From: an uncultured Lachnospiraceae bacterium | GTDB taxonomy: Bacteria > Bacillota > Clostridia > Christensenellales > UBA1242 | Assembly: GCA_964606505.1 (NCBI GenBank) | Contig: CAZSGM010000001.1 | Span: 113,588-177,587 of the forward strand | Length of the DNA: 64,000 nucleotides | Reading direction: 5' to 3' | Shown here: one piece after another, positions 14,775 through 43,137 of the stretch | Position numbering within the stretch: position 1 is the first letter of the stretch | How the letters are laid out: the number at the start of each line of letters is the position of its first letter | Program-made: the position numbers and the translations under genes | The notes under the pieces: generated by a model | Told to the model about the DNA's origin: nothing | Databases searched by the model: none | The model's input: the letters and a program-made list of their open reading frames with translations, nothing else

Positions 14775-14950
14775 TGTTTTTTAATGAAAAAAACAATGTT
14801 TTAAGCCAAAACTTGCAATAAGGGTTGGCTTTTTTATTTTTGTTTAGTTTTTTTTAAGTAGGGCGGGGGATGTGGAAATGTCGACAAAAGTTGTCAAATA
14901 ATAAAATAAGGCGTCATTTTTTTTGGCTAAGAAGTCGTTATAATGGGGGT

Positions 14951-20895: not shown

Positions 20896-21009
20896 TATAT
20901 TTAATTAGGAAGTTGAGTAGAAGTGGGGAATTTTGGGCGCATTTTTTTTAAGGTTGGGGGTTGATTGCGCGAGAAGTTTTTTGATAAAATACGGGAGGAG
21001 GTTATACAA

Positions 21010-21921
21010 ATGAAACTTAATGATTGGATAGAAATTTGGGCACAGACAAGTTTCGTCAACATCAAAGAAAGAAGCCATGACGTTTATAATTACTACCTCA
21101 CTTTTCACATCTTAGAGCGTCTTGGCAATTTGCAAGTCGAGGAAATTTCGCAGGAAACGCTGCAGAGTTATGTTTTGTCGCTTGCACTTGGAGACAAATG
21201 TTTTTCAAGCAACACTATCGCGGAGAGTTTTCGCGTGCTGAAGGCGTGCTTGCTCGATTATTATGAAAAATACGACATTAAGCCTGTGAAGTTCAAGGGT
21301 GTCAAAATTCCTACGACGGCGCGCCGCAAAATTAGGTGTTTTACCGAGGGCGAGCAGCGCAGGATTGAAAACCGCGTCAACCTTGTTCGCAACCCGAGCG
21401 AAATTGGCGTACTGGTCTCGCTTTACACAGGGTTGCGGCTGGGCGAAGTGCTAGCGCTGACGTGGAACGACGTCGACTTTAGCAAAAACCTAATCTACAT
21501 AGATAAGGCGCTATACTATAAAGGGAAACAGATTGTAATTTCGACGCCAAAAACGCCGTCGTCCATTCGCGTAATCCCGATACCGCAGTTTTTGCTGGTG
21601 TTGCTGCGCGAGAGGAAGAAACACGCGGTTGGCGAATACGTTGTTGCGGATGAGTTGGGGTTGCCGATTATACCGCGCACGTACCAGTACAGGTTTTACG
21701 CGCTGCTCAAGCGGGCGAAGGTCGAGAGACGGGGTTTTCACTCGCTGCGCCACACGTTTGCAACGCGCGCCCTTGAGTGTGGTATGGACGTTAAGTCGCT
21801 CGCCGACGTTTTGGGACACGCGAACCCTGTCGTAACACTCAAGCGTTACGCGCACTCAATGCTAGATTACAAAAAAACTATGATGAACAAAATCGGCAAA
21901 TTGTACTCGCGCGAGTATTAA
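21010..21921 (+). CDS. Tyrosine site-specific recombinase (phage integrase family)
   Basis: GLRLGEVLAL (Arg I), HSLRHTFAT (H-x-x-R), LGHANPVVTLKRYAHS (His/Tyr) and an N-terminal SAM-like domain. GGAGG RBS before ATG 21010. Confidence 0.9.
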   Translation: MKLNDWIEIWAQTSFVNIKERSHDVYNYYLTFHILERLGNLQVEEISQETLQSYVLSLALGDKCFSSNTIAESFRVLKACLLDYYEKYDIKPVKFKGVKIPTTARRKIRCFTEGEQRRIENRVNLVRNPSEIGVLVSLYTGLRLGEVLALTWNDVDFSKNLIYIDKALYYKGKQIVISTPKTPSSIRVIPIPQFLLVLLRERKKHAVGEYVVADELGLPIIPRTYQYRFYALLKRAKVERRGFHSLRHTFATRALECGMDVKSLADVLGHANPVVTLKRYAHSMLDYKKTMMNKIGKLYSREY

Positions 21922-22346: not shown

Positions 22347-22383
22347 AAATCTTTCGCTTATGTGTCCCATAAGCGAAAGATTT
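22347..22383. repeat. Left recombination-site candidate (IR-L): 16-bp-arm palindrome around the asymmetric core TGTCC
   Basis: AAATCTTTCGCTTATG TGTCC CATAAGCGAAAGATTT, preceded by A8. On the minus strand this reads as a hairpin followed by T8. Confidence 0.85.
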
Positions 22384-22391
22384 ACACCATT

Positions 22392-22420
22392 ATTGTAGCA
22401 AATTAGATAAAAAATATCAA
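22392..22420 (-). promoter_or_regulatory. Near-consensus sigma-A promoter inside the invertible cassette, currently pointing away from gene 22596
   Basis: Minus strand: TTGATA (22420-22415), 17-nt spacer ending in TGc, TACAAT (22397-22392). Confidence 0.6.
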
Positions 22421-22505
22421 ACATTTTGCCAAAATTATTGAAAAATCATTAAAAAATGGTCATTTTTTGCTATTTTTCTCCTCAAAAAATCGAATTTTGA
22501 AGAAT

Positions 22506-22536
22506 ATCTTTCGCTTATGGGACACATAAGCGAAAT
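22506..22536. repeat. Right recombination-site candidate (IR-R): same arms, core GGACA (reverse complement of the IR-L core)
   Basis: 22506-22535 is the exact reverse complement of 22352-22381 (30/30). Confidence 0.85.
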
Positions 22537-22595: not shown

Positions 22596-25349
22596 ATGGA
22601 AAAAAATAGGATAGGCAAAACCATACTACTGAATGTGGGGTTGGTTATTGCAGTGATTATGCTTGGGGTGGGCGCGTTTTTTGCGACACGGGCAGAAAGC
22701 GGCGAAGCGGGCGATTTTGTTTTGACGGGCGAAGGTGTTGGGGCAGGCGACTACGTAACTGCAGACGGGGCGCACAAAATAGGTGTTGCAACAGACGAGG
22801 GCGGGGGTACTACAATTGAATATTTCAACACTGCTGCGCCCGAGACGACGTACATGCTAACTGCTAGCACCACGACGTCGGCGGCAGGGGTTGAGACGAC
22901 AACCTTGACAGGAAAACTTGGCACGGACAATAAAAATGCAACGTTTGTTATGTTGAACGATAACGCCATACTTTGCGTTTCACATATTAAGTACGCAACG
23001 GCGAGCGGGAACGTTGTTTTGTGCAGGTACACGCCGTTTGTGAAAACATACACGCCGACAGCGGACGCAAACGGGGTAATTGAGGTTTGGCGCAATGACG
23101 CAAAAGTTAGCGCATTTGCAAACTTCCAAGCCGCGTTCAGCTTTGCGCAAAACAACGACACGATTAAACTAAAAAGCAACTTTTTGGCTTCTGAGGGCGC
23201 GGCGCTCGTTGGTAAAACTCTCACAATTGATGGCGGCAACTACCTGCTCGACAAGTCGCAGTGGGCGAACACGGTTTTTGCCGTTGCAGAGGACGCGCAA
23301 CTCACAATTAACAACCTAGACATAGACGGTGGGGCAACCAACTGGGCGGTCGACTTCGACGCTGTTACTTTTGAAGGCGCGACAATCCCGCTTGTAGCGG
23401 GTTCAGCGGATAATGACCCACAAACAAGTTATCCTGCCGTTACTTCAAAGGGCGAGTTGATTGCTAATAATTTAAACATTAGCAATATTTATTCGTCGAC
23501 AGCTGAGGGGATTGGGTTATTTGTGGCAAAAGGGAAAATAAACATTAGCAATAGCGCATTTTCACACTTAGCTTCAAGTATTGGGGGTGCTATGCGCATA
23601 GGGTGCGATATCATTGAGGAAAGTTTGGATAGTTACCCCGTAGAAAGCGTAGTTTTTAATAGTGTCGATTTTACTAATAATTATGCAGCGGCTTGGGGTG
23701 GTGGTGCAATTTATATCGGAAACATTGGCGAGGGGAGTTTTGAAGATTGCAACTTTGATACAAATGCGGCAAGTGGGTTAAATGGCGGCGGCGCAATTAG
23801 TATGTACACACCAGATTATGCTGCGTACAATTTGGGGCTAACTTATGGCAAAATAGATATAAACAATTCAATTTTTAATAATAATTGGGCAGGGCGCTGT
23901 GGCTTTGCAATTTATAACCGCGATGTAGAATTTACAATAACGAACACAAAGTTCACTGGGAATATCGGCGCATATCGTCCTGATGGGGCTGTCGCCACGT
24001 TTTTTTGTAGAGTAAATAGGTCAAACTATCGTTTCGCTGTGCAGATAATTAAGAATTGTGTATTTGAAAATAACCAAGGAGGTGTTGCCTGCATTGCAGA
24101 CAATGCGGGAGCTGCGGATATTAGAATTTCTGATACTCAATTTAAAAACAATGTGGGGAGTTCGAGCACATTGTTGTATACAGGTGTTGGGGAAATTGAT
24201 AACTGCACATTTGAAAATGAGCAAGTAACTGGAAGTGTAATAAGCGTGCCAATGTACAACGGAGATAGTCGTTATGAAAACGCAGGGCTGACGGGTCCAT
24301 CGCTAACAATCAAAGACACAACTTTCACAGGCACTCCTGACGGCGTTGATGATATTTCAATGAAAAAAGAAGAAGGAAGGGTCGATGTAGCCACAGAGCC
24401 CAAAATAATAATTGAGGGCGAAACAAAGGCAAACATTTCAATGGAGCACGGTGCAGAACTAGATGTTGACGGAATGCTAGATGGTAGTGTTACTTGCGCG
24501 GTGGACACCCCTAGCGATACTAATGTAACAGTTGGCACAAACGGCAGCATAACTGGCGGCGTTGTGCAGTACTATAACCTAACCATAACCTACCCTAACC
24601 CCGACAACGACACCGAAAGCCTAACTGAAACAATAACTATTGCGGGCGGCGCAACCAGTTCGCACGCGATTGAAATGTTGCTCGGCGTGAGCAAGGAAAA
24701 CCACACGCTCGCGCTTTACACAGATAGCGCGTGCACAATTGTGTGGGACTACAACTGCGACGGCGCGGAAACGCTGTACGGCAAATGGGAGTGGTCGGTT
24801 ACCATAAACTATTATGACCAAGGCGGGGTAAGGTTTACCGGAACGCACGGCGCGGCGTTTGCGCAACGACACATCAACGGAAGAAAAACAATTATAGACA
24901 CGCCAACAAAAGGCGGTTACATCTTTGATGGGTGGTACTTGGGCGACTCAACTTGCTCAGACGAAAGCAAAAGGGTTACTGAACTTAGCGCGGACGTGAA
25001 TTACGAAAGCATTTCGCTTTACGCTAAATGGCGAGTTTTTGAACAAACAATCACGCTTACGTGCCAAAATTTCACTACGCAACAGTTTATGGTGTACGTG
25101 TTTATTGGGGACGACCTTGTTATGCAAGTAAAGCCGACCGCAACAACAACCATCACGCTTAGCAGGCTAAAAAACTATGACAAAACGGTTCGCATTTGTT
25201 TTGTGTACGGTTACCACGGCAAAATTGAGTACACAAGTTTGACAGGCGCGAAAGCAAACGGGCGCAGCGTCAACGTTTCGCTTGTCGAAAATACGCAAAT
25301 CAATTACAAAATAACAACTCCAAACGTCAACGCAAGCATAATTGTTTAA
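22596..25349 (+). CDS. Large surface protein: N-terminal signal/anchor, PMP/pectin-lyase-like beta-helix repeats, Listeria-Bacteroides-type repeat, C-terminal domain related to the GLUG paralog tails
   Basis: AAGGAG RBS. GGAIY/GGGAIS-type repeats (NNYAAAWGGGAIYIGN, GLNGGGAISM). GGYIFDGWY motif. The C-terminus ...NVNASIIV aligns with the ...VNNWIV[VI] tails. Confidence 0.85.
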   Translation: MEKNRIGKTILLNVGLVIAVIMLGVGAFFATRAESGEAGDFVLTGEGVGAGDYVTADGAHKIGVATDEGGGTTIEYFNTAAPETTYMLTASTTTSAAGVETTTLTGKLGTDNKNATFVMLNDNAILCVSHIKYATASGNVVLCRYTPFVKTYTPTADANGVIEVWRNDAKVSAFANFQAAFSFAQNNDTIKLKSNFLASEGAALVGKTLTIDGGNYLLDKSQWANTVFAVAEDAQLTINNLDIDGGATNWAVDFDAVTFEGATIPLVAGSADNDPQTSYPAVTSKGELIANNLNISNIYSSTAEGIGLFVAKGKINISNSAFSHLASSIGGAMRIGCDIIEESLDSYPVESVVFNSVDFTNNYAAAWGGGAIYIGNIGEGSFEDCNFDTNAASGLNGGGAISMYTPDYAAYNLGLTYGKIDINNSIFNNNWAGRCGFAIYNRDVEFTITNTKFTGNIGAYRPDGAVATFFCRVNRSNYRFAVQIIKNCVFENNQGGVACIADNAGAADIRISDTQFKNNVGSSSTLLYTGVGEIDNCTFENEQVTGSVISVPMYNGDSRYENAGLTGPSLTIKDTTFTGTPDGVDDISMKKEEGRVDVATEPKIIIEGETKANISMEHGAELDVDGMLDGSVTCAVDTPSDTNVTVGTNGSITGGVVQYYNLTITYPNPDNDTESLTETITIAGGATSSHAIEMLLGVSKENHTLALYTDSACTIVWDYNCDGAETLYGKWEWSVTINYYDQGGVRFTGTHGAAFAQRHINGRKTIIDTPTKGGYIFDGWYLGDSTCSDESKRVTELSADVNYESISLYAKWRVFEQTITLTCQNFTTQQFMVYVFIGDDLVMQVKPTATTTITLSRLKNYDKTVRICFVYGYHGKIEYTSLTGAKANGRSVNVSLVENTQINYKITTPNVNASIIV

Positions 25350-25948: not shown

Positions 25949-25966
25949 ATCCCTGAGGTGAAGAAG

Positions 25967-27148
25967 ATGATACGAAGAGAGCACTACATTGAGCAGGTTC
26001 GCCCGTTTTACGATTCGGATTTAATTAAAATCATTACTGGAATTCGCAGGTCTGGCAAGTCGGTTATTATGGAACAAATAATGGACGAGATAAGGCAAAA
26101 GACGGACAACATTATTTATGTCAATTTTGAGGACAAAAAATCCTCGGCGAACATAACGAGCGCGGCTAAGTTGATTGCTTACGCAGAAAACAATAAAAAA
26201 GAGGGCAAGTGCTATGTGTTCTTTGATGAAATCCAGATGTTGTACGGGTGGGAGGAGGCGTGCACGTCTTTAAGGTTGTACGGCTACTCTGTGTTTATCA
26301 CGGGTTCGAACTCAAAACTGCTTTCGAGGGAGTTTGCGCGAGAACTTTCGGGTAGGTACGTTGCGTTTCGCGTGAGGCCGTTTATCTACAAGGAAATTGT
26401 TGAGTACTGCAAGGAGTTGGGGCGCGAGGCAAGTGTTTCAGACTATCTCGTGTGGGGCGGGTTCCCAAAACGTTTTGAGTTTGAGAGCCCCGAGGCGCAA
26501 TATAGGTACCTAAACGATTTGGATGATACGATTGTTATTAACGACCTTATTGCTCGTTACAAGATACGAAAGGAGAGTTTGTTTAAGAGTTTAGTAAACT
26601 ATGTTTTGCGTAGCAACGCGCGCATTTTCTCGGCAAACTCCATTCGCGACTACGTTAAGCAGGAGCACGAGGGTTGTTCGGTCAATACGATAATGAAATA
26701 TCTTTATTATCTGGAAGAAGCGTATATAATTGAGCCGGTTAAGCAGTATTCCACCAAAACAAAAAAAGAACTTTCGTATTATATAAAAATCTATAATGCG
26801 GACGTGTGCTTTAACTCTATCCGCTGTCCAAACAACCGCTTTGACCTCACGCACAACCTTGAAAATATTGTTTATAACGAACTTATTTATATGGGTTATG
26901 AAGTGTATGTTTACAATAATAACGGTAAGGAAATCGACTTTTTAGCGACCAAGGGGACAAAACAGTATTACGTGCAAGTTGCCTATAGCGTGGCAGAAGA
27001 AAAAGCGTATTTGCGCGAGTTTGGGGCGTTTAAAAATTTAGACAACCTTTCTCAAAAAATCATTATCACTAACGACGACATTGACTATTCAACAAGTCTT
27101 GTAAAGCACATAAAATTGAAAGACTTTTTGATGATGGAAAGTTTGTAA
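25967..27148 (+). CDS. AAA+ ATPase with a DUF4143-type C-terminal domain
   Basis: GIRRSGKS Walker A, VFFDEIQ Walker B-like. Start at ATG 25967 after GAGGTG (the track uses GTG 25958). Confidence 0.85.
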   Translation: MIRREHYIEQVRPFYDSDLIKIITGIRRSGKSVIMEQIMDEIRQKTDNIIYVNFEDKKSSANITSAAKLIAYAENNKKEGKCYVFFDEIQMLYGWEEACTSLRLYGYSVFITGSNSKLLSREFARELSGRYVAFRVRPFIYKEIVEYCKELGREASVSDYLVWGGFPKRFEFESPEAQYRYLNDLDDTIVINDLIARYKIRKESLFKSLVNYVLRSNARIFSANSIRDYVKQEHEGCSVNTIMKYLYYLEEAYIIEPVKQYSTKTKKELSYYIKIYNADVCFNSIRCPNNRFDLTHNLENIVYNELIYMGYEVYVYNNNGKEIDFLATKGTKQYYVQVAYSVAEEKAYLREFGAFKNLDNLSQKIIITNDDIDYSTSLVKHIKLKDFLMMESL

Positions 27149-27237
27149 TCAAATTAAAATGTGCAAAATCGCGTTAAAGTGCGTAAAAGGGGGTTAAAAC
27201 GCTTGCAAAGCGCGCGAAAATGTTGTAAATTTTACTT

Positions 27238-27681
27238 ATGAGAAAATTTGAGATTGTTAGCGGGTGCGCGGACGAGGTTAAGTTGCCAAATCGCGCAACA
27301 AAGAATTCGGCGGGTTATGATTTTTATTCGCCCGTGGACGTGGTTATTGAGCCGAGCGCGGCGAAGTTGATTTTTACCAACGTCAAGGCGTGTTTTGGCG
27401 CGGACGAGGTGCTGATTTTGTGTTGCACGAGCGGGATGGGCAAGCGCGGCGTTGTGCTCGCGAACGGTATCGGGGTTATTGACGCCGACTACTATAATAA
27501 TGAGAACAACGAGGGCAACATTGGCTTTATGCTCCGAAATCTAGGCGCGGAACCATATGTTGTTAAGCGCGGCGACAAAATCGGGCAAGGTATATTTACT
27601 AAATTTCTGAAAGTGGACGACGAAGAGGAAATAACAAGCGAGCGCGTCGGCGGGTTTGGCAGCACAGTGAAAAAAGGGTAA
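27238..27681 (+). CDS. dut: dUTP diphosphatase
   Basis: NSAGYDF, GVIDADY and RVGGFGST motifs; 147 aa. Confidence 0.9.
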   Translation: MRKFEIVSGCADEVKLPNRATKNSAGYDFYSPVDVVIEPSAAKLIFTNVKACFGADEVLILCCTSGMGKRGVVLANGIGVIDADYYNNENNEGNIGFMLRNLGAEPYVVKRGDKIGQGIFTKFLKVDDEEEITSERVGGFGSTVKKG

Positions 27682-27784
27682 TACCCTTTTTTTGTTTTTC
27701 GGACAAACAATTAAATCGGGAAACATAAACAATAAGTAAAATTTGTAATAGCAACATAATTTTCAGTTGATGTTACTGCAAAGT

Positions 27785-27824
27785 GCAGACAAATTCGATT
27801 GATTTGAATTTGTCTGCGCTTTTA
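27785..27824 (+). terminator. Intrinsic terminator after dut
   Basis: GCAGACAAATTC / GAATTTGTCTGC 12-bp stem, 9-nt loop, GCTTTTA. Confidence 0.65.
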
Positions 27825-27848
27825 ATGCAATGCTAAGCGGTCGGCGGG

Positions 27849-28067
27849 CTACTTTTGTTGGCTGTGGGGCATAAAGTCTTTGAGGGTGGACTTGACGTCG
27901 TCGAGGTGCTGGGCGTTGAGTTTTTTCTTTAGGTATAACTTTTTCTTTTTTAGTTCGAGGTAGTGGGAGAGTTGGGCTGCCGTCTTTTCCGTGTGTTCGT
28001 CAAGTATTTGTTTTTCGAGCGCGTTTAACTCCTCGTTTGTTTTGTCAATGTTTTCAATTTGTTTCAT
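27849..28067 (-). CDS. Small coiled-coil protein, DUF465/YdcH-like
   Basis: 72 aa with an LELKKKKLYLKKKL heptad-like segment. No clear RBS. Confidence 0.45.
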   Translation of the reverse strand: MKQIENIDKTNEELNALEKQILDEHTEKTAAQLSHYLELKKKKLYLKKKLNAQHLDDVKSTLKDFMPHSQQK

Positions 28068-28607
28068 AACTTTAGTATTTGCGGTTTTTCTTAAATTATC
28101 CTTGTTTTTTGTGGGGAAGAGGGTGGTTTTGTGAAAAGCTTAGTTGGAGCGTGTGGCAGTGGTGGCGCGCTATTTTTTTTGTAACGAGCGGATGTGTGAG
28201 GTAAAAGCGGGCGCGCGCGGCTGAGCGGAGTAATAGGAATAAAAAAATGAGTTTAAGGGCTAAGCGCCAGCGGTGCAAATGTAATTACTGGGTTGAGCGA
28301 AAAGTGCGCGAACTGGGTGTTTTGGGTGCGGAACCCTTGTAAAAGCGTTGCGGCAAGCGGCTTGGGTGTTGGAGCGAGTGCGCGTTGAATTTTAGTGTGG
28401 TGAGTAGAACCGTCGCGCGTGTAATGTGTGCGCGGTGGGGATGTTGGCGCTGCGTGTCAGAGTGCGAAGTTAAATGGCGTGGTGGCGCGCTTTTCGGGTT
28501 GAGTTGAGGGTAACCTGAAAATTGGTTGGGGCGGTGCATAAAATTTTGGGAAATGGAAATAATTGGATAAAGAAGCGGAAGTTAAAAACGGGAAAGGAGA
28601 GGGCGTT

Positions 28608-29093
28608 ATGGAGACGGGCATAAGAGGAAAGGTTTTTGTTGCGGCGGTGGCATTGGTGGTTAGTTTGATTGTTTTGATGCCTAATTACAACTGCACGTTT
28701 GTTTCGTATGTGCGCGCGGACAGCGATGTTTCATTTTATGTGTTGGGCGAGTGCGAGCGCGTACCGCGGTTTTGCACAAGTGTGGATGTTGGCAAGGGCG
28801 CGGTCGTTAAGTGTAAGGGCGCGGTGGCTGAGGATGTTAGCAAGTCGCTGGACGCCGTCGCGGGCGTGAGTTTTTGTTTTTCGGGCGGACAGGATGAGAT
28901 TAACGAGTTTTTGGAACGCGTGGACGCGGTGGTTTTGAAATGTGAAAATATCGCTGACATAACCTCTTATTTCGCGTACTCAAAAAAACTCAAGAACGGC
29001 ATTCGCGTGGACGGCGAACTCGTCAACTTGCAAATTGCTAAGTGTGGCAATACTATAACCATCGGCTCGCCAATTATCTTGGGCGAATATTAA
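28608..29093 (+). CDS. Membrane-anchored protein, possibly YwmB-like
   Basis: AAAGGAGAGGG RBS before ATG 28608, N-terminal TM, and a C-terminal ...NLQIAKCGNTITIGSPIILGEY resembling YwmB-family ends (from memory). Confidence 0.5.
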   Translation: METGIRGKVFVAAVALVVSLIVLMPNYNCTFVSYVRADSDVSFYVLGECERVPRFCTSVDVGKGAVVKCKGAVAEDVSKSLDAVAGVSFCFSGGQDEINEFLERVDAVVLKCENIADITSYFAYSKKLKNGIRVDGELVNLQIAKCGNTITIGSPIILGEY

Positions 29094-29271
29094 TAGAAGA
29101 GTCGGCAACTTAATGAACGGGGGAAAATTTTTTAATAAAAAACAACTTTTGTGTAAATAGACGGCGCAAAATAGTTGTTATTTTTTTTGAAATTGTGTAT
29201 AATAACATGAAATCTAATAAATGATTTTCTTTGTTTTTATGCGCTAAAACAAAGGAGAAAGGAAGGTTTTT

Positions 29272-31754
29272 ATGGTAAATAATGACGAAATGAAAAACGC
29301 GAAAAAACTGGGGGGGGGGGGGGGTATTTAGTTGCTAAAAATAGCAGCTATACTGCCCAAAATGATAAGGATACCTGCAAAAATATGCAGGATAACTCCC
29401 AATTTTTGCAACAATCGCAAAATTGCGAAAATGCGCAAAAAAATAATAATTTAGAAAAAATATCAATCCAAAACAATGAAAAACTGCATTGCAAAAAATT
29501 AATTATTAACACAGAAAGTAATGATGAATTTAATTTAATAAATAATGATTTATTAATTAATTCAAGCAAGCAAAATGATTGCGAAAAAAATATTAATGTA
29601 TCAAATATTTGTAGTAGTAAATGTGCGCAAAGTGATACATGTAAAAATAATACAAGAGAAAATTTTTCTGCTTTAAAAAATAGTTATAACAATGTGAGTC
29701 ATAAAAATAATATAAGTTACAAAAATAATATAAAGGCATATTCCGCTACGACAAAAGTTTGTTTGTGGCTTTTCTTGCTTGTAGCATGCCTCGCGGTTAC
29801 AATTGGTTTTGGTTGCGTTGGCGGAAGTAGTGGGAACGGCAGTTTAAAAGTTGCGCCCGAAATTGAGACTGCCACTGCGGCAGGTTCAAGTTGGAGCGGC
29901 AGCGGAACATCGGGTTCTCCCTATTTGATAAGCAACGAGGCGGAGTTGACCGCGCTGGCTACTGCGTGCAACTCAGGCACAGCGTATTCGGGAACATACT
30001 TTAAACTAACTCAAGATATTTCAATAACATCTACAAACTGGGCGCCAATCGGATTTGACGAAAGTTCGGCGGGTACGCCTACAAATGTTTTTTCGGGGAT
30101 TTTTGACGGCGCGGAACACACAATTACAATAAGCAACACTTTCAGTAAGGCTTTTGATTTGACGGTTGCGGGCGGCTATGCGTATTGTGGTGCAGTATTT
30201 GGATTTGTTCAAAATGGACGAGTGTTAAATCTTAATGTGAAGTTTAATCTTGGCGCAAATTCAATGTTTGATCATTCATCAGCAACAACAACTAAGATGT
30301 ATTATTATATGTATGGGGGGATTGTTGGGGGGTGCCAGTCAGCAGATAGTGAAAATCCCATTATTCAAAATTGTAGTGTTTTAAGTGAAAATAATTCCGA
30401 AATCAAAGTAAATTTTGGTTTTAACAGATACTGTTCTTTTGGTGGGATAGTAGGCAGAGTCATTGGGAATGGAATAATAGATAATTGCTCATTAAACGCT
30501 AGTTTATCTTCTATGGGACACTCTTTTAAGGAGGGGGGGATAGTTGCATACTCAGAAGGTAAGGTTACCAATTGCAGTGTCAATTCAGATATAATTTGTG
30601 GGGGAACCGTAACCTCAGGGGCTTATGTGACTGACCAAAAACGTGGGGGTATTGCAGGGGTGGCAGAAACAATCGAAAATTGCGCATTTAATGGTGGAAG
30701 TTTTACTTGTGATGCTGGAGAAATATATGGAGTTGGAGTTATAGCAGGTGAAGCGACTACTATTAAAAATTGCAAGGTTCTAAAGGGGGCGGATAGCACA
30801 AAGAAAATAAAGATTGAGACTGGGTCAGGGACAAAAAATGGTTTTCCTGCGGGAGTTATAGCGGGGGCTTGTAAATATATTGAGAATTGTTATACTAACG
30901 CAATTATTGATTACGTCAAAACGTGGGGAGATAGCCGCGCATATGCAGGAGTAATTGCAGGGCAAGCAACAACTGTGAAGAACTGCAAAGCTGACGTCTC
31001 TATAGGTAGTTATAGTTCTAATGACATTTGTTACTTTGGGCACATTGTGGGGGCTGTAACCACATCGACATTAAACGGTTCAACCGTAAATCCGAGTATA
31101 ACAAACTGCTTCATACAAGTATCTACAACGGCTAGTCAGCCGACAAATAACGCGCAGGTTTGCTCAAATGTGAGTAGTGGAACCCTCACTACCTACAACT
31201 GCGTATTTATAGGGGTTACGGGGCTAAAATTCACAAGCAGTATTGCGGCAACTGCGGGCGACAGTTACGGGTTATACGCCTCAAGTTCAGATGTTGCTGC
31301 GCTAAAGAAAACATCCACCTACGCGGGAGCGGGCGCAAATGGTTACACTTGGAACTCCGCCGCGCCGTGGGACTTCGAGAGTGCGTGGTGTATTGAAACT
31401 GAGAACGAAACCTATCCAACACTGCAATTTATGAGCGCGCCGTGCACAGTTACAATAAATGTTACAACAAGCGCGGGTGCGGGCGGTGTTGTCGGAACGG
31501 ATAAGTATATCCTCTACAAACTAAATAGCGCGGGCACGGTCGTCAACCAGTTTGTCGTTAGCCACAACAGCGTAGTAACCTTTTTGGCAAAACGCGGCGA
31601 GAAAATAACGCTGCTAACAACTTACAGGTCGTACCTTTATTGGACGGTAGACGGCACGCAGGTTGATAAGTACCAGTTCACGCCGTCAGGCGACACTACA
31701 ATCGCCATACACATAGCCGCGCCTGCCGTCATCAACAATTCAATCGTGATTTAG
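29272..31754 (+). CDS. GLUG-repeat surface protein paralog B, interrupted at the 5' poly-G tract (phase OFF as assembled)
   Basis: The ATG 29272 leader MVNNDEMKNAKKLGGGG hits TAG after the 15-G tract. The main frame (track ORF 29385-31754) fuses with 16 or 13 G. Same architecture as paralog A. Confidence 0.8.
29310..29324 (+). repeat. Homopolymeric G15 tract
   Basis: Counted directly (1+10+4). Confidence 0.9.
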
Positions 31755-31770
31755 GTTGGCGCACAAAATT

Positions 31771-31801
31771 AGGAAGAAAAACTGTTTTCTTCCTTTTTTT
31801 A
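31771..31801 (+). terminator. Intrinsic terminator after paralog B
   Basis: AGGAAGAAAA / TTTTCTTCCT stem, loop ACTG, T7. Confidence 0.7.
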
Positions 31802-32182
31802 TATATAATCCTTTTATTTGTATATGTTTTACATTATTATTGCGCAAATTGTAGACAAATTGCGTGTTTTGTGATACAATAACAAAATAGGGCAAAAATA
31901 GAAAAACAATATTTGTAGCGTTAGCAATTGTGTGGCTGCGTGCGGAGTGTTGAGCTTTAGGCGGCGTCGGCAACCACTACGGCAATAATCGTGGCGTCCG
32001 CAATCGCGGGAGCAGTAGCACGGCGAGGCGAAAATGCGTCGGCGAAAATGCGGCGACATTTGCAAGGTGGCGCAAAACTGATAGGGCGACAATTTAGAGG
32101 ATAGAGGAAAAGTTTATTAATAAGCACTAAGGAAATTGTTGGGGTCTAAATAATTTTATTAAGCACTAAACAATTCGATAAG

Positions 32183-32282
32183 CACAAAGAAAGTTGTTGC
32201 GGGCTAAGGAAATTGTTGGGGCTTGAGAAATTATTAGGGGTCAAAGAAGTTTGTTAGTGGCACAAAGGAAGGGAATGTTATG
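32183..32282 (+). repeat. Five tandem ~19-20-bp degenerate units (AAGGAAATTGTTGGGGC-like) running into the start codon of the mTERF-like gene
   Basis: Units start at ~32183, 32204, 32223, 32242 and 32262, with an extra copy at 32126. Each contains an SD-like AAGGAA/AAAGAA/GAGAAA word. Confidence 0.6.
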
Positions 32283-33569
32283 ACAATAGAAGAAATTTTA
32301 ATGAGCAGATATGGGTGGAAGCAAGAAGATATTGAGGCTAAGCGCGAGGTACTTGCGCACATTTCACATCTAACTGACGATGATAAAGTTTACGCAAAGG
32401 GGAATTTTTACGTAAAAACATTTTTTATGACTTATGCCGACCTTAGGAAGGTGATAAAGGCATTTCCGCAAATGCTGGGGCTGTCGGAAGATTATGTTAT
32501 TAACAAGATAGATTACTATGTATCTATGTTTGGGAACGCCGAAAGTGTTCGGAAAGCGTTTATTAAATTTCCGCAAATTTTAAGCATTTCAAACGAAACA
32601 ATTAACGCGAAAATAGAGAAATACAAGAAGAGATTGCACTGCGAAAGAGCGCACGTTGGGGCTATGTGGGCTGAGTATCCGTCAATTCTTCATTATTCAG
32701 ATAAATATATTGACGGAAAAATTGACTACTTAATAAAAACCTTTGAGGTCGAAGAGTACGAACTTGCTTGTATACTTAAACGTTCGCCACAGATTTTGGG
32801 GTTATCCAGCGAAACCATTACTGCAAAGCGCGACTTTTATTGCGATGAACTTGGGTTTAGCCGCAAAGCCGTCGTTAAGCTTGTTAGGGATTTTCCGACA
32901 ATTTTGGGGCTTTCCAACGAAACGGTTTTGTATAGGTTCAACTTTTTCAAGGCGCAGTATGGGTTGGACGATAAGCATGTCGCGAAGATGTTTACAATGA
33001 TACCGCAGATTGTTGCTCTGCCCGACGAAACCATAATGAACAAGCAACATTTGTTTAGCGATGTGCTCGGCGTAACTAAGGGGGAGTTTGCCTCAATTAT
33101 TAGCAGACACCCGCAGGCGCTCACAATATCGGCGACCGCGCTGAAGTACAAGGCGGACCAACTTGCTTCACTTGGTATTGCGCGAAAGGAACTGCTTAAT
33201 GACCCGATGATTTTGAGTTCGCCTGCCAATATGCTTAAAGTTAGGTACATTATTTTGAGGCAGGTTGCAACGCGCGAAGAGATTTTAAAGTCCAAGGGTT
33301 GGTATATGTTCAACCAAAGCAAGTTGTACTCTAGGTATGCGTATATAAAGGATGTATTAAAAAAAGAGCCTACCTTGTCTGACTTGTTGCGTAGCCAACA
33401 GCGCTTTGAAATGAAGTTTGGATGGATTGGGATTGATGATGACTGGACTGAACCTAAATTTACAATGGCAATAGTTGACGAATTGGCGCAAAAGGTGGCA
33501 AAAGAAGAAAAAATCGAACTTACGCGCAAAGACCGTGAGGTATTAGGCACTTGCATAGAGAAGGAGTAA
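32280..33569 (+). CDS. mTERF-repeat protein (helical ~32-aa repeats)
   Basis: At least eight repeats of the pattern FPQ[IM]L[GS]LSxExIxxKxxxxxxxxGxxxxxVxKxxxxxP (e.g. FPQMLGLSEDYV, FPQILSISNETI, SPQILGLSSETI, FPTILGLSNETV, IPQIVALPDETI, HPQALTISATAL). Confidence 0.75.
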   Translation: MTIEEILMSRYGWKQEDIEAKREVLAHISHLTDDDKVYAKGNFYVKTFFMTYADLRKVIKAFPQMLGLSEDYVINKIDYYVSMFGNAESVRKAFIKFPQILSISNETINAKIEKYKKRLHCERAHVGAMWAEYPSILHYSDKYIDGKIDYLIKTFEVEEYELACILKRSPQILGLSSETITAKRDFYCDELGFSRKAVVKLVRDFPTILGLSNETVLYRFNFFKAQYGLDDKHVAKMFTMIPQIVALPDETIMNKQHLFSDVLGVTKGEFASIISRHPQALTISATALKYKADQLASLGIARKELLNDPMILSSPANMLKVRYIILRQVATREEILKSKGWYMFNQSKLYSRYAYIKDVLKKEPTLSDLLRSQQRFEMKFGWIGIDDDWTEPKFTMAIVDELAQKVAKEEKIELTRKDREVLGTCIEKE

Positions 33570-33572
33570 TAT

Positions 33573-33872
33573 ATGAATTGTGAAGATTTTTTTAGTTCAA
33601 TCATATTCAGTGATGAAAGTATATCTAAAGAGGAACAAACATCGTATGAGTTCTTTCTAGATGGGAGCGTTGTAGATTGGGATGAAGTTTATGAAAATTT
33701 TTATACTCTTCAACGATGCGGAATTAAAAGCGACGAAATGCTTACCTTGTTTTGTGTAAACCCCAACCTCTTTTTTCTTGATAGATGGGTGTTAGATGAT
33801 AAAATTATAGAACTGACTAATTACGACTACGACCTTGAAGCGATGTTAAAAGCAAACCCCACAATTATTTAG
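33573..33872 (+). CDS. Small acidic protein with one or two mTERF-like half repeats
   Basis: Starts 4 nt after the upstream stop with a GGAG RBS. Contains NPNLFFL and ANPTII motifs. Confidence 0.55.
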   Translation: MNCEDFFSSIIFSDESISKEEQTSYEFFLDGSVVDWDEVYENFYTLQRCGIKSDEMLTLFCVNPNLFFLDRWVLDDKIIELTNYDYDLEAMLKANPTII

Positions 33873-33896
33873 TGGGGTTTGCTTTTTGTTTTTTTG
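33853..33896 (+). terminator. Intrinsic terminator overlapping the stop codon of 33573-33872
   Basis: GCAAACCCCAC / GTGGGGTTTGC 11-bp stem followed by a T-rich run. A G7 run follows at 33897-33903. Confidence 0.7.
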
Positions 33897-34130
33897 GGGG
33901 GGGCAAATTTGTGAGCGTGCGGATGTTGTGGCGAGGAAGGCAGGAAATTTTGGGGAAAGACTTGTAAATTTTGTCTTAGTGTGGTATAATTATTTTTAGA
34001 TACTTGCAAAATAATATATTATATAGGTTTTACAATGTGTGAAACTTTACAACAGATGGAGAGTGAGAGTTGTTATCATATAATGGTTAGGTTATTTCGC
34101 AAATTTTAACATAATGGGAATGATGAGGGA

Positions 34131-34712
34131 ATGGCTATGTTGAATGTCAACTTTGATAGTGATATTATCGTGAAAAATGTTAAGGAAACATCCCTTAAGT
34201 ACGAGGAATTTTTGAGTGCTTACACGCAGTATATTAAAGCGGTTGAGGCAGGGAAGGAACTTGACAAGCGCGAAAAAGATGAACTTTACAATGCGTCTCA
34301 ACGCGTGTACGAGATGAGCGATGACATGAACGAGGCGTTTAGGTTTTACAACCACAATTTGCGCACGTTTTCGGAAGATTATCTTGACGTAACATTGCCA
34401 AAGGTTACGGTTAAGGTTAATGAAAACCCTACAAGAAGCAGAATTGGCGAGCCTAGCAAGGAAGTCGACAATGACTCATTGATTGAACAGGCGAGAGAGA
34501 AAGCGGGCGAAAAACTTGATGATGTTCGTAGCCATTTAATCCAGATGGAAAACGAAGAGGTTTGGAACGACAAAATCGGCTACAAATTTTACGAGGGGGC
34601 AAGCGACGCGATTAGACGCAGCGCGGGTTACCTTGATAATGTAGACAACATTGTTGTAAGACACAAAGTTCGCGAAAACAGCGCAGACAAGGAAATTGCG
34701 CGCCGCGGATAG
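34131..34712 (+). CDS. Hypothetical soluble protein (193 aa)
   Basis: ORF with coding-like composition; no motif recognised. ATG 34137 is an alternative start. Confidence 0.6.
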   Translation: MAMLNVNFDSDIIVKNVKETSLKYEEFLSAYTQYIKAVEAGKELDKREKDELYNASQRVYEMSDDMNEAFRFYNHNLRTFSEDYLDVTLPKVTVKVNENPTRSRIGEPSKEVDNDSLIEQAREKAGEKLDDVRSHLIQMENEEVWNDKIGYKFYEGASDAIRRSAGYLDNVDNIVVRHKVRENSADKEIARRG

Positions 34713-35314
34713 TTAAATCTAAAGTTTCTATAACCATTATATCTAAAGTTTTTCTAACAAGAAAACCTTTTGACACTTCAGGCAGAGTTTTATCCGCTTG
34801 GGGTGTTTTTTGTGGTGGGGGCTTTGTTTAGTGGTGTTTTTTAAGGTTTCCTTTTTTTTGAGAACGCGGGCGAGCGGGAGCGTGCGAATGCGACGTTATT
34901 AATGCGTTGCCTTAGGTGCGCGCAATTTTGGGTGGTATTGCGTCGTTTTTTGCGCGCGGGTGCAGCGGCGTTTTGTAGAGGTGGAGCGCGCTTTGTAGTG
35001 TAGTTAATGAGGTATGTGTGGTGCGGGCTGTAGGTGCAGTTTGCGGGGAATAGAGCGGCGCGTTATGTTTGGGCGGCGCGGAGTAGGTGTTTTAGGGCAA
35101 AAAATGAGAGAGAACGCGGGCGGGATGTGCAAAAGTTTTTTTTTAAGCGGGCACGAGTATTTGCGCAACACTTGACAAAAATATCAAAATAAAGTACAAT
35201 AGCAGTAACGGAGTTGTTGCGATGTTTAAAGGTGGATGTTTATTTAAAATTATTACGTCGGTGGCGTTTATCGGGCTTTTGGTTTTCCTGATTGTCAAGT
35301 ATTGGTGATAGGTG

Positions 35315-36145
35315 ATGAAAGGCAAATTTTTGACGTGCGCGGGCTCACTGGTGCTGCTGGTTATTGTGCTGGTTGCAGGTGGGATTGCGGGGTTTAAGTT
35401 GCTGCAGGGCGAGTTTCAGCGCTCAGTTTTGGAAGAAATGGGGTTTGCGTCGCAGGAAGAGTACGACGCGTTTACGGCAAAACTCAATGAGCCGTACGAC
35501 GAGACGGTTTTTTACCAAAACACCTATACCGATGCGGACAAGGTGGCGGTTAGGGAGAGTTTGCGCGGGAGCGTTGTGTTTGCGGACGGGGAGCAACTGT
35601 TTTTGAGCAGCGGCGACTTCAACCTTGCCGCGCTGGAGAAGGAGAACAACGCGAGTCTCACCGGGGCGGTTGCGTTCACTTTTGGCGAGTATAGCTGTTT
35701 TTCGCAACTGCTGCTTTCGTCCATTTACAACTACGACACCGAAAGCAACGCGCAACTCAAGGACATTCAGATTTTGTCGTTTGTCGTGAATGCGGACGAG
35801 ACGCATACGCTTGTTATGAAACTTGCGACCGACACAATGAAAGCGTCCATGAAAACATACGGCGAGGGGTTGCCCGACAAACTTTACCTGACGTTCAACT
35901 ACAGTTTGGTTGTAAACGCGGGGGAGTTTGAGGCGGTCAACGTCGCTATGAGGGTTAACGCGCTCGACGACGCAACAAATGAGAAGTGCAACAGTTTTTT
36001 GAACAATGTTTTTGGCGTGAGGAGTTTCGCGAAAACCTTTGCGAACGTGTTTGTTGACCTGACGAATACGTTTGATTTAACTATCAGCGCAAGCACGACC
36101 TTTGCGGTAGGCGGGGTTACGAAAGCACCTAAGTTGGAAGCGTAA
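35315..36145 (+). CDS. Hypothetical N-terminally membrane-anchored protein
   Basis: MKGKFLTCAGSLVLLVIVLVAGGIAGF signal-anchor; no motif recognised. Confidence 0.65.
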   Translation: MKGKFLTCAGSLVLLVIVLVAGGIAGFKLLQGEFQRSVLEEMGFASQEEYDAFTAKLNEPYDETVFYQNTYTDADKVAVRESLRGSVVFADGEQLFLSSGDFNLAALEKENNASLTGAVAFTFGEYSCFSQLLLSSIYNYDTESNAQLKDIQILSFVVNADETHTLVMKLATDTMKASMKTYGEGLPDKLYLTFNYSLVVNAGEFEAVNVAMRVNALDDATNEKCNSFLNNVFGVRSFAKTFANVFVDLTNTFDLTISASTTFAVGGVTKAPKLEA

Positions 36146-36221
36146 AAAGAAATTAAGGCAAAAATGAGGAATAGCCAAAACAACGGAAACGGAATGGGGG
36201 TTGCCCGCACGAAAGGAGAGG

Positions 36222-36980
36222 ATGATGAAACTTAGTTATAGAGAAGAAATGTTGACATACTACGACGAAGACTATGATGAAGATACTGGGGGCAGTACAT
36301 CTGACTTTGGGCAGGAAGTTGCAGATGGGGCAAGTAGTGCTGCGTCAAGTGTGGGGAATGCCTTAAAAAATCACGCTGCAGGAAGCGGAAAGGCTGAGGC
36401 TGAAAAAAGTAAAAATAGCGATAAGAAGGGAGATAAAGCCAAAGCAGGTGGCGCCGATAAAAAGGGCGCGGCAGGCAAAGATGACAAGAATGGCAAAAAT
36501 AACGCTGCTGCGGCTGGGAAACTTGGTAAGGGCAAAGGCGCAAACGCAAAAAATGAAGTTCAAAAGAGTAAAAACGCTGCTAAAGGTGGAAAAGGTAAAG
36601 TTGGAGCTGCTGCAGGTGGAAAGGCAGGGGCGGCTTCTGCTGCGGGCAAATTGGGAAGTGGCGCAAAGGGCGCAGATGGTAAGGACGTTGACCAAGGCGG
36701 CAAGTACGATATAAAAAAGGCATACCTTAACAAGTTCAAGTTTAAGTTGCAAAAGAACTCGGAAGAGGAAGCAAAGGCGGAGGCAGAGGCAAACCGTTGC
36801 GACCCGTGCAATGAACTAAAGGCGGGTAACGGGCTTGACTTTGGTTGTCTCGACTGGGGCAAGTGCGCGTTCGCGAAGCCGTGTTGTAAAAAGGCACCGT
36901 ATCCGTGCGGGTGTTTTGCGTATATGTGTTTCGGCATAACCTTTGTGGGTGGGCTGATTAGTTCAATGTTCCTATTTTAA
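36222..36980 (+). CDS. Lys/Gly/Ala-rich low-complexity protein with a Cys-rich, tail-anchored C-terminus
   Basis: AAAGGAGAGG RBS. ~150 aa of KGA-rich sequence, then CDPCNELK...CLDWGKCAFAKPCCKKAPYPCGCFAYMCFGITFVGGLISSMFLF. Confidence 0.6.
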   Translation: MMKLSYREEMLTYYDEDYDEDTGGSTSDFGQEVADGASSAASSVGNALKNHAAGSGKAEAEKSKNSDKKGDKAKAGGADKKGAAGKDDKNGKNNAAAAGKLGKGKGANAKNEVQKSKNAAKGGKGKVGAAAGGKAGAASAAGKLGSGAKGADGKDVDQGGKYDIKKAYLNKFKFKLQKNSEEEAKAEAEANRCDPCNELKAGNGLDFGCLDWGKCAFAKPCCKKAPYPCGCFAYMCFGITFVGGLISSMFLF

Positions 36981-37281
36981 AATGTAATTTTAAATTATTC
37001 ATTCCTATGATTATGCTATGAAAAAGGGGAAAATATATACAATATAAAAACTGAAGATTATTTATTTTTGTTGTTCTAGTGAGGATGGGGCAATTTAATT
37101 AGACTATAACGACTCCGCTACATTTAATGATCCCAAAGTAAAATTTTGATATTTTAATGTAAAGTTATCGTTTCCTTTAAAATAAGAGTAGTTAAACATT
37201 TGAAAATAGGTTAAAAATAATTGACTTATTTAGCTATAAAAGGGTATAATAATAAAAATCGAAAAGTTGGAGGCTAGTCAA

Positions 37282-38396
37282 ATGAAAAAGAGAACAAATG
37301 TTCTAATATCGGGGGGGGGGGGGGCTCAGAAGTTGACCAAAATGACAGCGATTTAAAGCCCCAAAAAACTTGTGAAAAAGCAACTTTATTGAGTGCGCGC
37401 CAGCAACAAAATAATAGCGCATCATCTCAAAATGATTTAGGTACAAAAAGCCAAAATGTCAATAATGATTATCCGCAAAGTGGATTGAGTGAAAAACAAT
37501 GCTTGAATGGAAATGCCACTAGCAATGCATACAAACTTGATAATCCAAATTTTGGCAACAATATAAAACGAAGAAATAAAAAGAATTTAATAGCAATACT
37601 AATTTGTTTTGTATTGCTTTTGTCATTTACATTTGGGGTGTGTTGCACTGCAAGTTTGTTGCATGACTCAAAAACTGCAACAGGAACAATCGAGTTTGAG
37701 TTTGAGGAGTTGGGACCAATGGTTAGGTTTTCTTCTTCGCAAGCCTTTTCTCTTTCCACTAATAACAATGCAAAGAATTGGGACGGAACACTTTCATATT
37801 CCGCAAATAGAACTGCATTCACAGAGTGGGACGGCACGACTACTTTGAATGCCGGCAAGAACGGGAGTAAATACTACTTATATTTGGCTGGTGAAAATAA
37901 CACATACCTTTCAGGGACGAGCCAGGGTTCGACTTCTAATAATTGTGGTTGGAAATTGACTGGGAATGCAAACATTTCGTGTTCGGGGAATATTGAAAGC
38001 CTACTTGATTACCCCACAGTTGCTGATGGGGAGCATCCAATGATGGCAAAATTTTGTTATCAGTATTTATTTTATAATTGTAGTAAATTGGTGAGCGCAC
38101 CAACATTGCCCGCAACAACATTGACAGGTGGTTGCTATTTTTATATGTTCAATGGCTGCACTTCGTTAAGGGTAATCAACAGTGAAGCTAAAAGTGGTCT
38201 AAGTGGATATGAAACGGTATATTTGGATATGAGCAAATGTACAGAGGTATCGGGGAGTTGTAATAATATGTTCGCAATACAGCGAATGCTAGTCAATCTG
38301 GATTTAAAGCCACGCCAGAAAGTACTACAATTTACTACATACATAGTAGTAACAGCATTGTGCCAGCAACAAGTAGTTCTTGACGAAGATAAATAA
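37282..38396 (+). CDS. Membrane-anchored LRR-like (BspA-type) surface protein, interrupted at the 5' poly-G tract (phase OFF as assembled)
   Basis: GGAGG RBS, then ATG 37282. The leader MKKRTNVLISGGGG stops at TAA 37354 with 14 G. The main frame (track ORF 37389, TTG) is open back into the tract and fuses with 15 or 12 G. There is no in-frame ATG before the TM helix. Contains the CYQYLFYNCSKLVSAPTLPATTLTGGCYFYMFNGCTSL repeat pattern. The 3' end is uncertain. Confidence 0.7.
37311..37324 (+). repeat. Homopolymeric G14 tract
   Basis: Counted directly (10+4). Confidence 0.9.
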
Positions 38397-38409
38397 GGTA
38401 GACCTTTTA

Positions 38410-38458
38410 ATATATAATAACTAACAAATATATAATAACTGATTAATATATAATAACT
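38410..38458. repeat. Three 18-bp-spaced copies of ATATATAATAACT
   Basis: Copies at 38410, 38428 and 38446. Confidence 0.8.
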
Positions 38459-38477
38459 GACTGGGCGCGTGGAATTC

Positions 38478-38660
38478 AGTGCGTGAACTTGGCAAATTTG
38501 GCGAGCCGACGCGCTACATTCAGTAGATAAGTGTATGCAGGGTATTAGGTAGGTGCGCCAAATTCAATAGGTGGATGTATGAAATTTGACAAGTAGATGT
38601 ACAAATTTTGCTAAGTGGACGTGCAAATTTGATTGAGTGGGGTGGGTAAACAAATTGTGG
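38478..38660. repeat. Iteron-like array: 5-7 degenerate 22-bp units (AGTGGATGTRCAAATTTGAYA-like) in an exact 22-bp register
   Basis: Units start at 38548, 38570, 38592, 38614 and 38636, with weaker copies at ~38480 and 38521. Confidence 0.6.
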
Positions 38661-39885: not shown

Positions 39886-40134
39886 TATAAAAGTATAAAA
39901 TCTCCTAACAAAATAATTGCTGAAGGTTTAATTCCCCAAAAAACAAAGTTTATTTGCCACCAAATATTGAAATTATTTTTAACTTTTAAGATTAATATAA
40001 AGAAATTTTAAAAAACTTTGCAAATAATGATACATAAGTATTGACTTTTAAAAATTACATGTTAAAATGTAAGAAAAAGGATTGAAAAGAATTTTATCTC
40101 TTTCAGTCTTTTTACATTTAGGTGGAGGTGAAAT

Positions 40135-40554
40135 ATGGAAAAATTGAGAAAAGAAATCCTAGAAAACAATAGTAAAGTTGCGCTTGAAATAAAAAGAATA
40201 AATGACGAAATATTGCAAATCCCAAATTATTTAACAGAAGAAGAAAAAGAGACATATGGGGAAATAATAAAAGATTTAAAAGAGAGCATTAAATACAGAT
40301 TATCTCGCAGTGATGTTGAACTAATTTGGCAATATTGTCAATTGAAAATTATGCGAGATAGGGCATGGAGAGAATATAATAAAAATCCAGATAGATATAT
40401 GCGAATTGTGACTGGAATTTGTAGTGACGGGAAAACTCCCAAAGTTATAGTTAAAGAAAATGAACATTACAAAACTTTGATAGATTGCAATAAACAATTA
40501 GAGAAAGTATTAAAAGATTTAAGATTGACTCCAGAGATGAGAAGGGGGAAATAA
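40135..40554 (+). CDS. Phage terminase small subunit, P27-family-like
   Basis: 139 aa. The pattern IPNYLTEEEKETY...DVELIWQYCQ...LRLTPEMRRG matches the P27 TerS layout (from memory). GGAGG RBS. Confidence 0.6.
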   Translation: MEKLRKEILENNSKVALEIKRINDEILQIPNYLTEEEKETYGEIIKDLKESIKYRLSRSDVELIWQYCQLKIMRDRAWREYNKNPDRYMRIVTGICSDGKTPKVIVKENEHYKTLIDCNKQLEKVLKDLRLTPEMRRGK

Positions 40555-40614
40555 TAAAGTCAACGGCTTTTGGTAAATAAAAGGTTATGTTATAATAAAA
40601 ATGGAGGTGTTTAT

Positions 40615-43029: not shown

Positions 43030-43058
43030 GTATTCTATTTTATTGTGAACACACAAAA

Positions 43059-43097
43059 GCCATATATCCGATTTTGAGATATATGGCAATTTTTTTT
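43059..43097 (+). terminator. Intrinsic terminator at the right end of the cassette
   Basis: GCCATATATC / GATATATGGC stem, 9-nt loop, AA then T8. Confidence 0.7.
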
Positions 43098-43137
43098 GAA
43101 AAAATTAAAATAATTGACAGTCTTTACTTGGCATCGC

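Follow-up and report, generated by a model that had tools for sequence, protein, structure and literature searches.

Locus B, a gene for a predicted surface beta-helix protein, lies in a 64,000-nucleotide stretch of an uncultured Lachnospiraceae genome (assembly GCA_964606505.1, contig CAZSGM010000001.1, positions 113,588 to 177,587 of the forward strand; hereafter the window, in whose own coordinates all positions are given). The gene carries a run of 15 guanines shortly after its start codon, and it probably undergoes phase variation by slipped-strand mispairing at this poly-G tract, as one unit of a multi-locus phasome. The initial annotation had proposed such a contingency locus, and the proposal gains support from a 13-G tract at the same locus elsewhere, from two further loci of the window (C and D) that differ between samples only at their tracts, and from homologues that carry G12-G15 in mixed frames. 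The switch itself is made up of four features:

29272-29331, + strand: leader open reading frame (ORF) as sequenced, in the OFF state, MVNNDEMKNAKKLGGGGGI, ending at TAG 29329-31 (translation).
29310-29324, + strand: poly-G tract, G15, the proposed switch, in frame at G13 or G16 (sequence).
29325-29345, + strand: post-tract block TATTTAGTTGCTAAAAATAGC, reading YLVAKNS in the ON frame, with TAG and TAA in the two OFF frames.
29325-31754, + strand: main reading frame of paralog B, open from tract to stop, with the tract as its sole lesion.

The tract begins 38 nt downstream of the ATG at 29272, and as sequenced the leader runs for 19 codons before it meets TAG 29329-31. Sequence and translation confirm the path that the initial annotation had drawn from this ATG through the G run to TAG, apart from the leader peptide, for which it wrote four glycines where there are five. 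Its statement that B lies one nucleotide out of frame, and would be fused at 16 or 13 G's, was borne out in silico: G13 gives a single ORF of 826 aa and G16 one of 827 aa, both ending at 31754, while G12, G14, G15, G17 and G18 give peptides of 18-22 aa only. As expected of a contingency locus, the repeat is internal to the reading frame, and the gain or loss of one unit toggles the gene between full length and early stop; the gene is otherwise intact, with one lesion only, at the tract, and about 800 codons that remain open with every family-invariant residue in place in the alignment. The tract is also long: its 15 G's stand above an instability threshold of about 7-8 for poly-G/C, the G/C length that PhasomeIt takes for phase-variable tracts (PMC6321876), and prokaryotic genes generally contain fewer poly-G/C tracts than expected (PMC2831843). 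Both wrong frames are closed almost at once, by TAG at +5 and by TAA and TAG at +12 and +18 after the B tract; the different post-tract block found at locus D (TATAACTGCTAAAAA) likewise carries stops in both wrong frames, and in both leader types each OFF frame is closed within 12 nt past the tract. GGG makes up just 29% of the Gly codons of the window, which argues that the all-G run is kept as DNA and not as a requirement for glycine.

Four tracts of this kind occur in the window (A G12, B G15, C G14 and D G12), all on the + strand, which is the coding strand, and all 10-13 codons into surface-protein genes; D alone is in frame. Windows of ten G's occur 17 times, against 0.07 expected from dinucleotide-preserving shuffles, and no G or C run in the window exceeds 8 nt outside the four tracts. 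The companions of locus B are the following:

16765-19427, + strand: sister locus A, leader ATG 16765, G12 at 16800-16811, OFF; ON at G10 or G13 (886 or 887 aa).
37282-38396, + strand: locus C, an unrelated small membrane-anchored protein, leader MKKRTNVLIS, G14 at 37311-37324, OFF; ON at G12 or G15.
56942-59419, + strand: sister locus D, G12 at 56977-56988, ON, 825 aa.
3-1817, + strand: a further paralog, P0009, of which the window edge leaves the 3' part only.

At least six paralogs are present on the 321-kb source contig at NCBI: P0009, A (P0011), B (P0001), D (P0242), P0002, which is 73% identical to B, and P0013. Their gene calls mirror the state of the tracts: those of P0002 (starting MLMKNMKKLGGGGYLVAKNSS) and D (starting MIKSELENVKKVGGGGITAKNSS) are in frame through the tract, and those of P0001, P0009, P0011 and P0013 begin at a downstream Met (MQD...), as expected for tracts that are out of frame. 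Among the homologues in other genomes, P0004, P0007 and P0012 are in frame through the tract and, like P0002, read ...KKLGGGGYLVAKNS...; the gene call of P0006 starts at a GTG created by the tract, and in that of P0010 a leader is translated in a different frame. For the NCBI-only proteins B, P0002 and P0003, exact-protein look-ups gave no match. Locus C is a second user of the design, unrelated to the GLUG paralogs: its product, 370 aa when repaired, has no Pfam match, and neither G14, its tract length here, nor G13, that in sample SRR22923250, is in frame.

The tract is kept at the same position in paralogs and homologues, namely in A, B, D and five leaders read on four contigs of ENA assembly ERZ27271042. 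Each of these contigs shows AAGGAG, an ATG, a leader homologous to that of locus B (MNKSELENVKK[LV] and variants, as in the other family members) and then poly-G; one of the five leaders has G15 in frame, three have G14, G13 and G14 out of frame, and one has G12 in frame to the end of its contig. In every close homologue with readable DNA a homologous leader of 12 codons is thus followed by G12-G15, and the frames are mixed; of the 12 tracts counted when the window is pooled with all other assemblies, 4 are in frame, about the third that freely drifting lengths would give. On one of the ERZ27271042 contigs (L032, 2800-2811) an intergenic G12 follows a T8 run downstream of the homologue gene, with no leader ATG, and this tract may be promoter-associated.

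The 21 nt after the B tract are identical to locus A and are followed by 24 nt with 23 matches, in keeping with the near-identity to A noted at the outset; the block 29325-29345 is also identical in another contig, L033. It had been claimed further that the module is conserved as DNA and not only as protein. For B against D and A against D this is so, nucleotide identity peaking at 0.8-0.9 exactly over the Shine-Dalgarno (SD)-leader-tract segment and lying at 0.35-0.6 beyond it, but for A against B the conservation is not specific to the switch: identity is about 80% from the leader through the N-terminal tail and the membrane segment (the 5' 630 nt, to about 29900), falling to about 45-50% in the ectodomain. 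This mosaic of a shared 5' block and a diverged ectodomain is compatible with recombination among paralogs.

Beyond the close family the module was not seen. The 227 kb surrounding 31 distant GLUG homologues of other genomes contain no G/C run of 9 or more, which marks the poly-G tract as a lineage-specific acquisition of this clade. A scan of genome contigs returned distant GLUG relatives only; a scan of JGI metagenomes for tract plus post-tract motif gave 8 chance matches without the module, and one of viral contigs for leader plus tract gave 2 chance matches only. A profile search with a 60-aa leader alignment found no match even at E <=10, the query being probably too short and of low complexity.

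Differences between samples were sought in Logan contigs of the same or a near-identical strain, recovered by exact-protein look-up of neighbouring genes (the upstream SpoIIT-like gene and the ORF at 14870-16099 gave no match in such look-ups). About 32 kb could be compared, and the lengths given are assembly consensus lengths only:

L039 (SRR22923250), window 27165-29339, about 98% identity: locus B at G13, an in-frame length, against G15 here.
L036 (SRR22923250), window 31660-38570, 6,910 nt: no mismatches; the sole indel is the C tract, G13 against G14.
L049 (SRR14160765), 6,124 nt: 3 mismatches; the sole indel is the D tract, G11 against G12, which turns D off.
L037 (SRR14160761), 2,780 nt: the sole difference is at the intergenic G8 at 33896, which is G7 in this contig.
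L048 (SRR22923250), 6,408 nt, identical: stops one base short of the D tract.
L051 (SRR14160761), 2,624 nt: stops after 11 G's of the D tract.

In L039 the 45 nt before and the 15 nt after the B tract are identical to the window, and so at B (G15/G13), as at C (G14/G13) and D (G12/G11), the tract is polymorphic in length between conserved flanks; all the hallmarks of a simple-sequence-repeat contingency locus that sequence can reveal are thus present at B. Of 5 comparisons of G runs of at least 8 nt, 4 show a difference (the long tracts in all three of theirs); of 41 comparisons of A/T runs of at least 7 nt, 3 do (Fisher p = 0.001). Such a concentration of differences at the tracts is the signature of localised hypermutation, read with the caution that consensus lengths call for, and the contigs that break at tracts may hint at frequent, reversible switching within a clonal population. 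Two shorter runs also vary: the A7 run at 56417-56423, upstream of locus D, is A8 in L050 and L051, A/T variation being far rarer than that of G tracts; and the T7G8 at 33889-33903, which follows a terminator-like hairpin and precedes the gene at 34131-34712, has G8 in the window and in L036 and G7 in L037.

Several observations weigh against phase variation as the explanation. Homopolymers of 12-15 are error-prone to size on every sequencing platform; in each of the four G-tract differences it is the window whose tract is longer, which could reflect a technical bias (n=4, not significant); the strain behind L039 is slightly divergent (about 98% identity), which makes G13 versus G15 a difference between strains; and some A/T runs also differ between samples. 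It could accordingly be argued that the tract is real, that its true length is 13 or 16 and the gene simply on, and that the sample differences are homopolymer miscalls, a view with which the frequent ending of Logan contigs at or within tracts would also agree. We regard this as improbable. Lengths from G11 to G15 were found in several independent short-read assemblies, including both G15 and G14 in ERZ27271042; the frames are mixed across the 12 tracts, about one third of them in frame, as free-running tracts would give; and a stable linker of four or five glycines would need no all-GGG run. The differences between samples argue against a length miscall as the full explanation, and the design of a hypermutable tract stands even if the state called here should be wrong.

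Slippage might instead occur on the RNA or at the ribosome, with the polymerase slipping on G15, or ribosomes shifting frame, such that an OFF allele would still give rise to some full-length protein and the tract would tune the level of the protein and would not act as a binary switch. Transcriptional slippage on poly-A tracts is established in endosymbionts (PMC2831843), and a 9-bp RNA-DNA hybrid lying wholly inside G15 should be able to realign at no energy cost. Such rescue leaves the differences in DNA length between samples unexplained, however, and as the account of how B is controlled we think it unlikely; it could coexist with slippage of the DNA, as a leak on top of the switch.

The signals around locus B bear on where translation begins:

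29175-29203, + strand: putative promoter-like site, TTGTTA-17 nt-TATAAT (consensus scan, 10/12 matches, the best in the region).
29252-29266, + strand: SD region AAGGAG ... AGGAAGG, serving the leader ATG 29272 (sequence).
31771-31802, + strand: predicted intrinsic-terminator-like hairpin, then a T run.

The promoter-like site sits 69 nt upstream of ATG 29272 and, together with the terminator-like hairpin, makes the gene look monocistronic. Within its 17-nt spacer lies a T8 run (29181-29188), of the same length in L039, and a change in the length of this run would alter the promoter spacing. A 13-bp hairpin covers the first AAGGAG of the 5' untranslated region (5'UTR), and the fold of 5'UTR plus leader RNA as a whole is not significant (z = -0.5). 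Rfam and tRNA scans of the whole window gave no known RNA element, and for want of an Rfam match and of significant RNA structure a riboswitch- or attenuator-type reading was dropped. A G-quadruplex role of G15 was weighed and set aside, as the data are explained without one.

Were translation to begin at ATG 29385, the first ATG of the main B frame, the tract would be irrelevant and the leader a separate or spurious small ORF. Gene callers do choose this codon (P0001, 789 aa), its Met (..CKNMQDN..) is conserved in the A-type paralogs, and the 38 residues that would be lost belong to a disordered tail. This start is nevertheless very unlikely: it is preceded only by a weak, poorly spaced SD-like AAGGA (anti-SD duplex energy -4.9 kcal/mol, against -8.8 kcal/mol for the leader ATG), from the tract onwards the frame stays open and its protein sequence is conserved (YLVAKNS...), the in-frame homologues (P0002, P0012, P0007 and D) read through from the leader, and the strongest DNA conservation among paralogs falls on the SD-leader-tract segment. 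That B is a decaying pseudogene, a frameshifted and redundant paralog on its way to being lost, is hardly credible: it is out of frame as sequenced and its paralogs are many, but its roughly 800 open codons keep all family-invariant residues, the tract is the sole lesion, and another sample has this locus in frame.

The protein that the switch would control is predicted, in its repaired 827-aa form, to consist of four parts, namely an N-terminal tail of 162 residues, rich in Asn, Lys, Ser and Cys and predicted to be disordered, and the following:

29757-29813, + strand: single predicted transmembrane (TM) segment VCLWLFLLVACLAVTIGFG, residues 163-181 of the 827-aa form, hydropathy 2.52.
29898-31220, + strand: GLUG-type right-handed beta-helix ectodomain, about residues 210-650, in the AlphaFold2 (AF2) model (predicted local distance difference test, pLDDT, mostly 80-95).
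31503-31715, + strand: C-terminal beta-rich domain, about residues 745-815, which defines the narrow family (alignment; AF2 strands at pLDDT 50-65).

An AF2 helix at residues 160-178 overlaps the TM segment, whose N side has a Lys-rich flank, and by the positive-inside rule the topology would be N-in/C-out. Foldseek places the B model closest, among structures in the PDB, to 3n6z (BACOVA_03286, a 'putative IgA1 protease'; E 6.8e-4, probability 1.00), with lower matches to phage tailspikes, IgA1 protease chains and the L. reuteri SRRP adhesin; the model is thus a right-handed beta-helix like the solved structures, the fold of the GLUG family. The label of GLUG paralog given to B draws on its relatives and on the model: D passes the gathering threshold of Pfam GLUG (PF07581; 23.5 bits against 20.5), homologues P0004, P0005 and P0007 carry PF07581 and the model resembles 3n6z, but B itself stays below threshold at 15.3 bits (E 0.028), as does A at 17.7. 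The family profile finds the beta-helix module in over 23,000 representatives, among them many giant surface proteins, and matches over the full length, with tail, TM segment and C-terminal domain included, are limited to about 8 of 1.84 billion representatives; judged by these profile matches, the B family is a narrow, lineage-specific one built on a common surface beta-helix.

We propose the following mechanism. Locus B would form a single transcription unit, from the promoter-like site and SD through ATG 29272, a 13-codon leader, G15 and an ORF of about 800 codons to the terminator. During replication the long G run would misalign, by slipped-strand mispairing, and G's would be gained or lost. 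At G13 or G16 the leader would be joined in frame to the full protein, which would cross the membrane once, N-in, and display its GLUG-type beta-helix at the cell surface; with any other length, G15 among them, ribosomes would stop 2-5 codons past the tract at TAG or TAA, and the protein would not be made. With at least six paralogs on the source contig and the unrelated surface protein C, each with its own tract, a population could come to hold many combinations of surface proteins, and such combinatorial states may serve as a hedge against phage, host immunity or changing substrates. Slippage is the presumed cause of the changes in the B tract; that these would be reversible and frequent, that the OFF state would lack the protein, and that switching would bring a selective benefit are likewise parts of the proposal that we infer from the design of the locus. 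As for a wider reading, we would put at even chances that the source is a Christensenellales-like gut Clostridium whose multi-locus poly-G phasome is built on a reusable 5' module kept similar by recombination or gene conversion. The module would comprise an SD, about 12 codons of leader with Lys-Lys-Leu/Val at their end, a G12-G15 tract and stops in both wrong frames; it would head at least six paralogous beta-helix surface proteins, and a differently worded poly-G leader would head the unrelated C.

The genomic context is of Bacillota type: the window encodes SpoIIT/DUF1779, and the homologue contig L032 encodes DegV and YjzC. Among named relatives, those closest to a pyridoxal phosphate (PLP) enzyme at 3117-4379, about 67-71% identical, come from metagenome-assembled genomes labelled Christensenellales, Candidatus Caccovivens and 'Clostridiales', a tentative placement that reaches no further than the order. 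Just upstream of locus B, L039 has 14-nt and 11-nt deletions at 28567-28596, at the 5' end of the SpoIIT-like gene. The AAA_14/DUF4143 ATPase gene at 25958-27148, upstream of the dUTPase gene, has no counterpart in L039, where homology begins at about 27165, and this suggests a strain-specific insertion. Further upstream, a palindromic element of about 40 nt (AAATCTTTCGCTTATG-tgtcc-CATAAGCGAAAGATTT) occurs twice, at 22347-22394 and 22493-22535, with a spacing of about 100 nt; the pair is flanked by a tyrosine recombinase gene (20965-21921) and a gene for a 917-aa surface protein with a Listeria-Bacteroides repeat (22596-25349), a layout that resembles an invertible promoter. Downstream of locus B, the protein of 32280-33569, which occurs identically in several Logan assemblies, has a strong Pfam match to mTERF (PF02536, E 2.9e-45, three stretches), a family known mainly from mitochondria and plastids. 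A low-GC island at 40000-43500 (27% GC at 40-42 kb) encodes proteins with phage GNAT-like and DAM-like domains and is probably a mobile element or prophage remnant.

If the proposed phase variation is real, a commensal anaerobe would vary its surface combinatorially through very long poly-G tracts that switch an entire family of beta-helix proteins. Practical consequences would follow for genome analysis: gene callers truncate or mis-start such genes (P0001, called from an internal Met, is an example), short-read assemblies fragment at the tracts, and comparisons of strains would report as 'frameshifted pseudogenes' what are states of a switch. The design also offers a handle on which surface proteins matter for interactions with phage and host in this lineage.

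Homopolymer contingency loci are textbook examples of phase variation in Campylobacter, Neisseria, Haemophilus and Helicobacter, and in gut commensals phase variation has been studied mostly as DNA inversion and invertible promoters. Keyword searches of the open-access literature, which are not proof of absence, found no multi-locus poly-G phasome in commensal Clostridia and no poly-G switch in Christensenellales or in GLUG proteins.

The closest system in layout is that of the Neisseria opa genes (cited in the review PMC11868660), which encode paralogous surface adhesin-like proteins and switch independently by slipped-strand mispairing at CTCTT repeats, one set in the leader-peptide coding region of each gene. 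Both systems place one repeat per paralog in the 5' leader coding region and both allow combinatorial surface states; the opa repeat is a pentanucleotide and the one described here a homopolymer, and the Opa proteins are outer-membrane beta-barrels with a cleaved signal peptide, whereas the B protein is predicted to combine a beta-helix ectodomain with one TM anchor and a long tail in the cytoplasm.

The same kind of device, an intragenic poly-G tract that turns a gene ON or OFF by frameshift, makes up the phasome of Campylobacter jejuni and C. coli, where each genome also carries many independent loci, mostly for surface structures, and tract lengths vary between isolates (PMC6321876). Campylobacter is an epsilonproteobacterium, whereas the bacterium here is a Clostridia-type (Bacillota) gut organism; the tracts here are longer (G12-G15), those of the GLUG paralogs always follow a conserved leader of 12-13 codons, and one paralogous family supplies most of the targets here.

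Homopolymer switches beyond the classic Gram-negative models include the poly-C of Streptococcus pyogenes mga and of Gardnerella NanH3, the poly-A of Listeria inlA and the variable surface protein families of Mycoplasma (references in PMC11868660; PMC2831843). These Gram-positive or wall-less examples share slipped-strand switching, often of surface proteins, but are mostly single loci or promoter tracts, unlike the multi-locus arrangement of the window.

With the known GLUG-motif beta-helix proteins (PF07581; 3n6z; the beta-helix domain of streptococcal IgA1 protease) the B protein shares, in its model, a right-handed beta-helix ectodomain. It differs from them in its sub-threshold score and in having no protease domain, and the N-terminal tail, TM anchor and C-terminal domain set the narrow family apart. 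The mechanism and the concept are thus already well known from other bacteria; what is new is the host lineage, an uncultured commensal of Clostridia type, the G12-G15 length of the tracts and the stereotyped leader module of a narrow beta-helix family.

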